Source: Acidobacteriota bacterium
GTDB lineage: Bacteria > Acidobacteriota > Vicinamibacteria > Vicinamibacterales > CAVVIG01
Assembly: GCA_016195265.1 (NCBI GenBank)
Contig: JACPZW010000009.1
Span: forward strand, 1,125 to 65,124
DNA length: 64,000 nt
Reading direction: 5' to 3'
Under the pieces are notes generated by a model that saw only the letters and a list, made by a program, of their open reading frames with translations, was not told the DNA's origin and ran no database searches. Positions 4,998 to 7,844 of this stretch are shown here, piece by piece (within the stretch, counting starts at the first letter, position 1; each line of letters opens with the position of its first letter). A program made the position numbers and the translations under genes.

Positions 4998-7844
4998 ATG
5001 GCGCACGAATGGATCGCTGTACGCGGCGCTCGCGTCCACAACCTCAAGAACATCGACGTCGACATCCCGCGCCACAAGCTGGTGGTCATCACCGGCCTGT
5101 CGGGTTCGGGCAAGTCGTCGCTCGCCTTTGACACGATCTACGCGGAAGGGCAGCGGCGGTACGTCGAGTCGCTGTCCGCCTACGCGCGCCAGTTCCTCGA
5201 GCAGATGGAAAAGCCGGACGTCGATCTGATCGACGGATTGTCCCCCGCCATCTCCATCGAACAAAAGACGACCGGCTCGAACCCGCGGTCGACGGTCGGC
5301 ACGGTCACGGAAATCTACGACTACCTCCGGCTGCTGTTCGCCAATATCGGCGTGCCGCATTGTTCGAACTGCGGCAAGGAGATCGCCAGCCAGTCGCTCG
5401 AACGCATCATCGACATGGTGATGCTGTACCCGCAGGACGAGCGCATCAACGTGCTGGCGCCGATCGTCCGCGGGCGCAAGGGCGAGTTCAAGAAGGAGCT
5501 CGCCGGCCTGCGCGGCCGCGGCTACACGAAAGCGCGCATCGACGGCCAGTTCCGCTCGCTCGAGGACGACGTCAAGCTGGACCGCCGCCGCAATCACAAC
5601 ATCGACGTCGTCGTTGATCGCGTGATCATCCGCGGCGGCGTGGAGCGCCGGCTCCTCGAATCGGTGGACGCCGCGCTGGCGCTCGCCGACGACATCGTCG
5701 TCATCAATTCGTATGAAGGCGGTGATCGCCTGTTCTCCAGGCGGCTCGCGTGCGTGGACTGCGGGCTCAGCATGCCGGAGATGACGTCGCGCGCGTTCTC
5801 GTTCAATTCGCCGCACGGCGCGTGCACCGCGTGCCAGGGGCTGGGCGCGATGGTGGATTTCGATCCGCTGCGCATCATCCCGAATGAGGCCGTATCGCTC
5901 GCCGACGGCGCCATTGCGCCGTGGGCGCGCGGCGATCGCAAGCTGGTGAAGGACGCGCTGCAGGGGCTCTCGCGCGACTTCGGGATCGATCTTAACGTGC
6001 CGTTCTCCCGCCTTCCGCGCAAATCGCGCGAGGTGCTGCTCTTCGGATCGGGGAGAACCTTCGAGGGCCTGATACCGAATCTCCGCCGGCGGTACGACGA
6101 GGGAAGCTGGTCGGATCAGGAGGAGCTCGAGCCGTATCGCTCGCTCCGGCCGTGCCCGAATTGCAAAGGCCAGCGCCTGAAGCCGCAGAGCCTATCGGTC
6201 AAGGTGAAGGGCCGCACGATCTCCGATTACGTCAACCTGCCGATTTCCGAAGCGGTGGACGTCGTCGAGCGCCTCGAGCTCACGGACCGCGAAGCGATCA
6301 TCGCCGAGCGCATTCTGAAGGAGATCGAGGAGCGCCTCCACTTTCTGAACGACGTCGGCGTCGGCTATCTCACGCTGGGGCGGAGCGCCGCGACGCTGTC
6401 TGGAGGGGAAGGCCAGCGCATTCGCCTCGCGACGCAAATCGGCGCGAATCTGACTGGCGTGCTGTACGTGCTGGACGAGCCGTCCATCGGGCTGCACCAG
6501 CGCGACAACCGCAAGCTGCTCGCGACCCTTTCAAAGCTACGCGACCTCGGCAACACGGTCATCGTCGTCGAGCACGACGAGGAGACGATCCGCGTCGCCG
6601 ACTACGTCATCGATCTGGGACCAGGCGCCGGGGATCTCGGCGGCCACGTCATCTTCCAGGGCACGCCGGCACAGCTGATGGAGGGGACGGGAGTCGGTGA
6701 TGCGGGGACGGGAGTCGGGACGCCGCTCGCTCCGACTCCCGTCCCCTCCCTGACCGGCGCCTACCTGACCGGCGCGCGATCGATTCCGACGCCGGCGGCC
6801 CGCCGGCCCGCGGCGAAGGGCGAGCTCGTGATTCGCGGCGCCCGCGAGAACAACCTGAAGAACATCGACGTCCGAATTCCCATCGGCGTGTTCACGGCCG
6901 TGACCGGCGTCAGCGGATCCGGCAAATCCACGCTCGTCAACGACATCCTGTACAAGTCTCTGGCCCGGACACTGTACCGCGCGGGCGACGAGCCCGGCGC
7001 GCACGATCGCATCGAAGGCATCGAGCTGATCGACAAGGTGATCGAGATCGATCAGTCGCCAATCGGCCGCACGCCGCGCTCGAACCCGGCGACGTACACG
7101 GGGCTCTTCACGTTCCTCCGCGACCTGTTCGCGATGATGCCGGAGGCGAAGGCGCGCGGCTTCAAGCCCGGCCGTTTCTCGTTCAACGTCAAGGGCGGAC
7201 GCTGCGAGGCGTGCCAGGGCGACGGCGTGATCGCGATCGAGATGCACTTCCTGCCCGACGTCTACGTGACGTGCGAGCAGTGCAAGGGCCGCCGTTACAA
7301 CCGCGAGACGCTCGAGATCAAGTACCGCGGCAAGTCGATCGCCGACGCGCTGGAGCTGACTGTGGATCACGCGCTGCCGCTGCTCGAGAACTTCCCGGCG
7401 ATCGCCAACAAGCTGCGGACGCTGCAGGACGTCGGCCTCGGCTACATCGAGCTCGGCCAGTCGGCGACGACGCTCTCGGGCGGCGAAGCGCAGCGTGTAA
7501 AGCTGTCGAAGGAGCTGTCGAAACGCGGCACGGGCCGCACGCTGTACATCCTCGACGAGCCGACCACGGGTCTGCACTTCGAGGACACGCGTAAGCTGCT
7601 CGACGTCCTGACCAAGCTCGTCGATCAGGGCAACACGATCGTGGTCATCGAGCACAACCTCGACGTCATCAAGTCGGCGGACTACTTGATCGACCTGGGT
7701 CCCGAGGGTGGAGCCGGGGGCGGACGCATCATCGCCGCGGGCACGCCCGAGGAAGTCGCGCGCAACGCGCAATCGGCGACGGGGCAGTTTCTGGCGAACC
7801 TGTTCAGCCCGCCACGCGTGCCGTTTCGCACGGTGGCCGGATGA
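4998..7844 (+). CDS. uvrA: Excinuclease ABC subunit A
   Basis: Two ABC modules ([12 protein letters not shown] and [11 protein letters not shown]), two LSGGE signatures and CxxC zinc modules. The start is at [18 protein letters not shown]. Confidence 0.97.
6683..6746. repeat. Palindromic element inside the uvrA coding sequence
   Basis: GGGGACGGGAGTCGG occurs at 6683-6697 and 6704-6718. Its exact reverse complement, CCGACTCCCGTCCCC, is at 6732-6746. The block is translated in frame as [21 protein letters not shown]. Confidence 0.85.

Follow-up and report, generated by a model that had tools for sequence, protein, structure and literature searches.

What is a perfect palindrome doing in frame inside a gene for DNA repair? 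The question is raised by a 64,000-nt stretch of an Acidobacteria contig (JACPZW010000009.1, assembly GCA_016195265.1; this whole stretch is hereafter the window), in which the 15-mer GGGGACGGGAGTCGG occurs within uvrA twice in direct orientation and once as its exact reverse complement. A first-pass annotation, made from the letters of the window, had described the block as a selfish insertion of the Rickettsia palindromic element (RPE) type. We find instead a member of a dispersed family of short hairpins lying mostly inside genes, with invariant arms and freely diverging loops. We put at roughly 60% the probability that the uvrA block is a copy of a lineage-specific, GC-rich mobile palindromic repeat resembling the repetitive extragenic palindromes (REPs) and their paired form, REPINs, compatible with coding and recognized as a hairpin by a putative factor acting in trans.

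The hairpins in uvrA and dprA

The uvrA block comprises the following features (positions in the window).

4998–7844, + strand: uvrA coding sequence, the host gene (translation, identity to P0001, alignment to solved UvrA structures)
6680–6749, no strand: whole palindromic block including its 3-bp GGA...TCC extension, with an 18-bp outer stem (hairpin scan, folds)
6683–6697, + strand: arm copy 1, GGGGACGGGAGTCGG, the outer left arm, without an outer right partner (motif search)
6698–6703, + strand: 6-nt spacer TGATGC separating the two direct arm copies (sequence; TGATGT in the relative L052)
6704–6718, + strand: arm copy 2, left arm of the inner hairpin (motif search, hairpin scan)
6719–6731, + strand: 13-nt loop GACGCCGCTCGCT, not conserved (compared with the orthologous loop of L052)
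6732–6746, − strand: right arm, exact reverse complement of the 15-mer (motif search)

This is a one-sided double copy of 64 nt: an arm, a spacer and then arm–loop–arm′ (++-). The direct copies start 21 nt apart at 6683 and 6704 and the inverted copy follows the loop at 6732, just as the first-pass annotation had read them, and the same 21-nt period recurs in nested copies at two other loci (L004 and L012). Allowing up to two mismatches, the window holds five matches to the 15-mer against 0.57 expected, a count that none of 100 shuffles reached; three of the five make up the uvrA block and the other two the dprA hairpin described below. The flanking GGA and TCC let the first arm pair with the right arm over the full 18 bp, and the block folds at −30.4 kcal/mol as DNA (z = −5.8 against shuffles) and at −54.2 kcal/mol as RNA (z = −4.6). 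In the orthologous hairpin of L052, arm copy 1 carries one substitution (GGGGACGGGTGTCGG) and the loop matches at 6 of 13 positions, between flanks that are 91% identical.

The host open reading frame (ORF) runs uninterrupted for 955 codons (4977/4998–7844), and from Met-8 its product is 100% identical to a 948-residue protein (P0001) named excinuclease ABC subunit UvrA. Within it the block is translated in frame as a 21-residue peptide, flanked by ...GTPAQLME and SLTGAYL. We placed this site by sequence alignment to solved UvrA structures (2R6F, 3PIH, 3ZQJ and 9GXK), which have 18 residues fewer there (..GTPEEVMND-P-NSLTGQYL); those aligned across the site come from Geobacillus, Thermotoga and Mycobacterium. 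An AlphaFold2 model of the window UvrA, built from a 33-sequence alignment, had a mean predicted local distance difference test score (pLDDT) of 39 and was not used. A scan of metagenome UvrA loci returned, among the matches listed, mainly distant orthologues (64–70% identity, with one at 90%) and served only to set a baseline of 2–4 residues: aligned to a query lacking the insert, 76 of 80 listed matches are only 2–4 codons longer. The distant UvrAs therefore have no homologous residues at the site, and the insertion proposed in the first-pass annotation stands, with about 54 nt more than distant or solved UvrAs carry. By the domain assignment reported for 2R6F, we take the site to be the end of the first ATP-binding domain, just ahead of the linker to the second. 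Surviving copies of the family lie in interdomain linkers or variable loops, so UvrA simply has a linker between its two nucleotide-binding domains (NBD-I and NBD-II) that is longer by 18 residues.

A second gene of the window hosts the same family.

18323–19396, + strand: dprA coding sequence (Pfam DNA_processg_A at residues 76–279 and DprA_WH at 310–357; product 100% identical to the 357-residue P0121)
19172–19215, no strand: second hairpin of the family (left arm 19172–19186, 14-nt loop, right arm 19201–19215 with one mismatch)

As had been claimed, this copy is read in a frame different from that of the uvrA copy; it is translated as GDGSRSAIDGRLPCP and lies in the DprA interdomain linker. 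The two loci give the window a density of about one GGGGACGGGAGTCGG locus per 30 kb, and elsewhere in it the 8-nt head is no more frequent than chance predicts. In a related metagenome-assembled genome (MAG), 'Terriglobia bacterium SRVP_36', whose DNA is about 88% identical to the window over 10 kb, dprA among it, and which is thus a relative but not the same MAG, the orthologous place in dprA (L039) holds a hairpin with the same arms and a different loop. Its array is +--, with the extra arm on one side, against ++- in uvrA. The DprA linkers of relatives show varied hairpin types, decay, remnants or no hairpin, as UvrA does. A second translated palindrome family, GVRPPG..RGLTP, is also found in this linker. 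In the distant DprAs P0149, P0151, P0172, P0216, P0223, P0226 and P0228, the linker palindrome reads GVRPPGADDSRGLTP, back-translating to GGCGTCAGGCCCCC / GGGGGCCTGACGCC, so that different hairpin families occupy one site.

A dispersed family and the turnover of its sites

We scanned one genome per species, 185,579 species in all, with the pattern ACGGGAGTCGG-N5-30-CCGACTCCCGT. At least 36 hairpins, in 27 loci, came from the single MAG SRVP_36, so the 15-mer is not unique to the window; two other Acidobacteria MAGs gave one hairpin each, and the remaining matches are unrelated hairpins of other phyla. Every Acidobacteria copy from the scan has the full arms GGGGACGGGAGTCGG / CCGACTCCCGTCCCC with GGGG...CCCC ends. 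The unit is a single hairpin of 41–46 nt, with a loop of 11–16 nt (mode 12–13), and the loops are all unlike each other apart from those of two neighbouring copies in L046. Further subfamilies keep the head GGGGACGGG and differ deeper inside, both arms changing together (for example, GGGGACGGGTCTCGG); GGGG(A/T)CGGG is common to all of them, and GGGGACGGGAGTCGG is the full arm of the subfamily present in the window. Throughout the Acidobacteria DNA examined, arms occur nearly always as inverted pairs and rarely singly. Hairpins also nest, a complete one standing mid-loop of another (L004 2352–2436, L012 608–691). A search of the whole window against Rfam 15 at the gathering threshold gave no match.

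The stem extends beyond the arms. Of 37 copies, 25 have it prolonged by at least two variable complementary base pairs: 18 by exactly two and 7 by three. An extension of two or more has a chance of 7.6% (p = 0.076; P = 8e-20), and the copies with three pairs are as many as would arise by chance from those with two. Among the outer pairs are AG/CT, AA/TT, GA/TC, GG/CC and ACGT-type combinations, and the flanking bases are inverted complements, not direct repeats. The unit thus behaves as NN-arm-loop-arm′-N′N′, which leaves two readings: a location at the dyad of a 4-bp palindrome, or two flank nucleotides copied by fold-back synthesis.

In the Acidobacteria DNA examined, 31 of 43 hairpins with the family head (~72%) lie within long ORFs, in all three frames and on either strand; these ORFs have a clear coding signature, with a GC content at third codon positions (GC3) of about 0.88. 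The others, about a quarter, are intergenic or at gene ends, with some borderline cases. The hosts confirmed by Pfam are ordinary housekeeping genes: enolase, LeuRS, a GyrA-type topoisomerase subunit, ThiC, PurL, alanine racemase, thiolase, DprA and an MrfA-like helicase; translation alone points to further hosts in PurN, an aminotransferase and a second class I tRNA synthetase. None of the six reading frames of the arm contains a stop codon, the residues that it encodes (G, T, V, P, S, D and R) are small or flexible, and the encoded peptide falls mostly between Pfam domains: exactly at the boundary of the N- and C-terminal domains in enolase, between the associated domain and the core in ThiC, and between the two domains of DprA. 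The best reading of this distribution is that the family is retained where a linker tolerates 15–20 extra residues.

Two hosts in SRVP_36 show unusual arrangements. The MrfA-like DEAD-box repair helicase (L004 2103–4775, − strand, scaffold_46) carries seven hairpins of two subfamilies, one pair of them nested; in another MAG the orthologous gene (L031, 79% amino acid identity) has a single hairpin, at a shared site. The thiolase gene (L009 5657–5728) holds a longer in-frame hairpin whose arms consist of about four heptamer-like units (GGGGACG GGGACAG GAGGGAC GGGAGTC), which suggests that arms can be built from repeated GGGRNCG-type units. Outside the phylum, the Verrucomicrobiota MAG ELA625 (L005, L027, L035 and L042) has four GTAG-tagged palindromes of about 70 nt (cGTAGCCGCCGACGGGAGTCGGCGCT...) whose 11-nt core, ACGGGAGTCGG, is also found in the Acidobacteria arm; they are probably REPs of an unrelated family caught by the search pattern.

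How the hairpins change once in place can be followed in four orthologous pairs: uvrA (window/L052), a glycosyltransferase-like ORF (L007/L033), the helicase (L004/L031) and enolase (L032/L139). Their arms are identical at 124 of 124 positions and their loops at 23 of 38 (61%), whereas the 4-fold degenerate sites of the host genes are 59–72% identical (pooled 67%; arms against 4-fold sites, P = 1e-20). Loops have diverged as 4-fold sites have, from which it follows that they drift neutrally and are inherited vertically; hypermutation of the loops, which we had entertained, is ruled out by the equal rates. The arms, to judge from these alignments, are either constrained in a sequence-specific way or continually restored. 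In a more distant enolase (L140, 83% identity), the hairpin keeps the same boundaries and remains perfect through two compensating changes per arm (GGGGACGGAGGTCG).

Wider sampling reveals turnover at the uvrA site. Among 120 UvrA orthologues (86–100% identity), between 0 and about 35 extra residues separate FQGTPxxLM from SLTGAYL, many of them differing in sequence, and 82 have inserts of about 8 residues or more. In 24 of these 82, the stems that back-translation permits exceed those of all 30 shuffles; many of the rest seem to be decayed versions. The DNA of uvrA from seven contigs shows at the same place a perfect hairpin that differs by lineage, with exact stems of 13–26 bp and the head (A)AGGGG(A/T)C.. 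or a variant of it; as RNA, the stems of the hairpins have energies of −43 to −63 kcal/mol. Clusters of UvrAs diverged by 6% or less hold several hairpin types, one-arm remnants and empty sites side by side. EQSSRSDPG and EKIPVPF are examples of remnants, and P0007 retains a right-arm remnant. In L051, 95% identical to the window, only a one-arm-like remnant is left (the site reads GGGGACGGAGTCG), of a length that does not fit simple deletion. Loci of 17–23 kb from relatives (L134–L137 and L140), examined for dispersal of the relatives' uvrA hairpin types within their own genomes, gave one hairpin each, from a small sample of DNA per genome. A small set of sites is used again and again, and among close relatives the copies at them are nested, replaced, decayed or deleted.

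The interdomain site of enolase turns over like the uvrA and dprA sites, and a second translated palindrome family is found there as well. Enolase also offers the closest view of a filled and an empty site. Enolases that are 92% identical include clean baseline alleles at the interdomain site (LY-KNDR-FTLP), and comparison of L138 with L139 and L032 shows that the 45-nt hairpin takes the place of 12 nt of the baseline allele; this comparison revealed no direct repeat and no target-site duplication. The clean insertion that had been supposed does not hold here, and the event was not a simple cut-and-paste insertion with target-site duplication. The helicase pair L004/L031 is too diverged to define insertion boundaries.

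Kinship and possible mechanism of the element

Two invariant inverted ends with a less conserved spacer between them are the architecture of REPINs (PMC3116915). The REPs and REPINs mobilized by REP-associated tyrosine transposases (RAYTs; Bertels & Rainey 2011, PMC3116915) resemble the Acidobacteria hairpins in their invariant ends of ~15–16 nt, their spacer and their hairpin form, in having tens or more dispersed copies in genome-specific families with compensatory stem changes, and in leaving part of one end upon deletion (cf. L051 and P0007). Such dispersal is matched by the 36 SRVP_36 hairpins of one subfamily together with the further subfamilies, and the conserved ends and less conserved spacer are likewise present. 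REPINs differ in being extragenic, ~70–100 nt long, composed of two imperfect REP palindromes with a GTAG tag, and in flanking a RAYT gene, whereas the Acidobacteria unit is a single, tagless 41–46-nt hairpin, ~72% within genes, and no RAYT was found in 39 ORFs scanned. The family is not mainly extragenic, and no unpaired GTAG or CGTC tag is seen: flanks vary and pair for 2 bp, and the CGTC within CCCGTCCCC is internal to the stem.

REPs inside genes have themselves been described. Di Nocera et al. 2013 (PMC3733652) report them in Opitutus terrae, Thauera, Thioalkalivibrio and Xanthomonas, with genes for DNA repair and tRNA synthetases numerous among the hosts and with REP dimers interrupting uvrA in Opitutus terrae and Thioalkalivibrio; the suggestion that in-frame palindromic repeats had no precedent in high-GC genomes is thereby overturned. 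These intragenic GTAG/CGTC REPs are alike in being in-frame palindromes in known proteins that add a peptide of ~20–30 residues, in their hosts (uvrA, uvrB, recB and tRNA synthetases among them) and in forming dimers and double insertions. They differ as a minority of a mainly intergenic family, with stems of 8–9 bp, loops of 4–5 nt and an unpaired tag; the Acidobacteria hairpins have stems of 15–18 bp, unconstrained loops of 11–16 nt, no tag and most copies in genes.

RPEs are AT-rich elements of ~100–150 bp, conserved over their whole length including the centre, and are not known outside Rickettsia. The likeness to them (Ogata et al. 2000, cited in PMC3733652 and PMC3184786) lies in in-frame palindromes in many unrelated, apparently functional genes, with the insert off the catalytic core; here too the UvrA and DprA ORFs are intact and 31 of 43 copies lie in ORFs. 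By description there is no resemblance in sequence or size: the Acidobacteria unit is short and GC-rich, its loops are not conserved, and its host is an Acidobacteria MAG. 'RPE-like' is therefore apt for the behaviour, an in-frame palindrome in genes, and wrong as a statement of membership. Nor do the hairpins show the direct target-site duplication that, together with terminal inverted repeats, marks miniature inverted-repeat transposable elements.

Cyanobacterial small dispersed repeats (Elhai et al. 2008) are reportedly ~20–30 nt long, nested within hairpins and mostly intergenic; heptamer arrays of the short tandemly repeated repetitive (STRR) type are also found in cyanobacteria. These repeats, named 'SDR' (PMC3116915), are similar in being very small and nested, and the window also holds tandem heptamer arrays and heptamer-built hairpins; they belong to another phylum, have other sequences and are mostly intergenic. 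The literature that we searched contained no description of such elements in Acidobacteria. The kind of element is thus already known, and its novelty lies in a location mostly within genes, in arms that are long and invariant around neutral loops, in a variable complementary flank of 2 bp, in nested copies and in the turnover seen at fixed linker sites.

On the REP/REPIN-like reading, a trans-acting factor specific for both sequence and structure would make the copies and keep them uniform, by analogy with RAYT/HUH enzymes acting on REPINs, and would recognize the hairpin base in single-stranded DNA. New copies may preferentially enter resident hairpins or small palindromes, a preference that would explain the nesting, the ++- and +-- arrays, the hot-spot turnover and the re-use of sites, and template switching from arm to arm inside one hairpin could keep both arms complementary. 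Several observations weigh against this reading. No transposase or RAYT-like gene or Pfam domain was found in the 29 ORFs of the window and 10 ORFs beside intergenic copies, and the uvrA, helicase and enolase comparisons yielded no clean pair of empty and filled sites, the enolase hairpin replacing 12 nt with no target-site duplication, so that transposition is presumptive. Classical REPs and REPINs lie outside genes and have an unpaired GTAG or CGTC tag, whereas the Acidobacteria hairpins are mostly in genes and tagless. The perfect conservation of arms at orthologous sites is unlike the simple copying and decay of a selfish element and needs selection in situ, directed repair or repeated replacement. 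It also undoes the word 'selfish' of the first-pass annotation, since a dead selfish insert would not keep its arms 100% conserved while synonymous sites diverged by 30–40%. Finally, the census is biased, its loci having been fetched for containing a hairpin, though the coding share of the hairpins cannot be an artefact of such fetching.

The main rival to a REP/REPIN-like repeat, though we consider it unlikely, is a functional nucleic-acid structure selected at each site, with spread as a secondary matter: a cis-acting RNA stem, or a cruciform or single-stranded DNA hairpin, bound by a host factor. Its possible roles include translation pausing at domain boundaries, control of mRNA decay and chromosome organization. 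The invariant arms (124/124 identical against ~61–67% for loops and 4-fold sites) speak for it, as do the compensatory double changes that keep the L140 enolase hairpin perfect at the same boundaries, the very stable stems (RNA, −43 to −63 kcal/mol), and the recurrence of a hairpin in the uvrA, dprA and enolase linkers of many lineages. Many copies also stand exactly between Pfam domains, but a tolerance filter would give that location too. Close relatives dispense with the hairpin (uvrA in L051/P0003, P0004, P0012–16 and P0079; enolase in P0243/P0244), many orthologues have decayed, non-palindromic versions, the hosts are functionally unrelated, about one copy in four lies between genes or at a gene end, and Rfam gave no match.

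The other alternatives are each contradicted by the data. Local origin without mobility, through replication template switching or slippage in GC-rich linkers with likeness arising by gene conversion or convergence, would account for arms that change together in the subfamilies and in L140, for a 2-bp flank stemming from fold-back copying, for ++- and +-- arrays resembling local duplication, and for a hairpin that replaces host nucleotides instead of inserting cleanly. We nevertheless hold it to be improbable: an identical 15-mer arm, whose chance expectation is near zero, could not have arisen independently at 36 or more unlinked loci in unrelated genes, and gene conversion across the hairpin would homogenize loops that in fact all differ within a genome and are vertical between genomes. 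DNA uptake sequences (DUS) are known to form inverted pairs with variable loops. A signal of this sort, or a genome signature motif enriched in genome-maintenance genes as DUS are in Neisseria, was prompted by the hosts of both window copies, uvrA and dprA, and by the MrfA-like repair helicase with its seven; it was dropped once the other hosts were identified and now seems highly improbable. The hosts are mostly ordinary metabolic and translation genes, the density in the window is ~1 per 30 kb and not ~1 per kb, the arms occur nearly only as inverted pairs, and they arrive as additions of 40–60 nt and not as motifs made by point mutation; very frequent single motifs with a bias to genome-maintenance genes, the mark of DUS and of uptake signal sequences (USS), are thus not what we see. 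All sequences come from MAGs or metagenome contigs, but an assembly or sequencing artefact is scarcely credible when the same in-frame structure stands at the same site, with frames preserved, in independent NCBI, ENA, JGI and Logan assemblies.

A bolder proposal, which we regard as doubtful, takes the hairpins to be no passengers but cis sites of a new kind of trans-acting system that works on hairpins within coding regions, with arms selected at each site and free loops. It might be a 'genomic symbiont' of REPIN-like character that has come to live in protein linkers, or else belong to the host and make use of sequence-specific stems at domain boundaries in mRNA or single-stranded DNA. The strict 2-bp variable complementary flank and the nesting in loop centres might then reflect a new insertion chemistry, one aimed at the dyads of hairpins or small palindromes.

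Short palindromic repeats usually count as features of intergenic DNA, and here a family lies mainly inside essential genes of an abundant, little-studied soil phylum, lengthening the linkers of UvrA, DprA, enolase and aminoacyl-tRNA synthetases. It explains why near-identical orthologues in metagenomic protein catalogues differ so puzzlingly in length, and it provides a natural map of insertion-tolerant sites in conserved proteins. Invariant arms beside neutrally drifting loops point to a putative sequence-specific factor, and its identification would bear on whether hosts maintain REP-like elements or are parasitized by them.

Other repeats in the window

The window holds several further kinds of repeat. 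GTAG-headed palindromes (GTAGGGCGGGTCCTTTCGGACCCG ... CGGGTCCGAAAGGACCCGGCCTAC) form intergenic inverted pairs or arrays at 2910–3098, 30131–30186 and 49016–49074 and look like GTAG-type REP/REPIN elements. Other intergenic hairpins, at 43199–43293, 50634–50726, 59764–59849 and 62718–62787, have arms made of tandem 7–8-mers followed by the inverted array. Each has its own unit (GTTCAGA/TTTCAGA, TTGGGTA-like, GGAATGCA and GTGRCTG), several of them AT-rich in a genome of 67% GC. The GGAATGCA octamer hairpin (59756–59860) overlaps the start of the ORF that follows a BamA-like gene; if the ATG at 59756 is used, its right arm encodes the hydrophobic core of a signal-peptide-like N terminus (..VSLAFLHSCILAFALSPPAHA/EVIERV..).

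Tandem heptamer arrays lie mostly at gene junctions (9554–9586, 16435–16463, 35592–35623, 44009–44060, 61160–61192 and 62711–62796), with more at 28436–28470, 61201–61228 and 61277–61305, at 19407–19444 and at 60360–60478. GTGGCTG/CAGCCAC and CAGCCCT recur among them, AAGTGAG is present five times between dprA and topA, and the arrays are reminiscent of cyanobacterial STRR. The 15-mer itself can be read as two heptamers, GGGGACG GGAGTCG, although any link to the heptamer arrays of the window is speculation.

A GIDA-family ORF (21930–23441, TrmFO/Gid-like by size) seems to have about 34 extra residues (214–247, at 22570–22680) that split its Pfam match in two. This segment contains 21-nt and 7-nt direct repeats and a small GC palindrome (CCGGGGGGCGGGGGCCCCCGG) and may be another in-frame repeat insertion. 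Between 38196 and 38855, in a region that fails the coding-signature filter, the window is dense in GC-rich short tandem repeats with periods of 12–21 nt.

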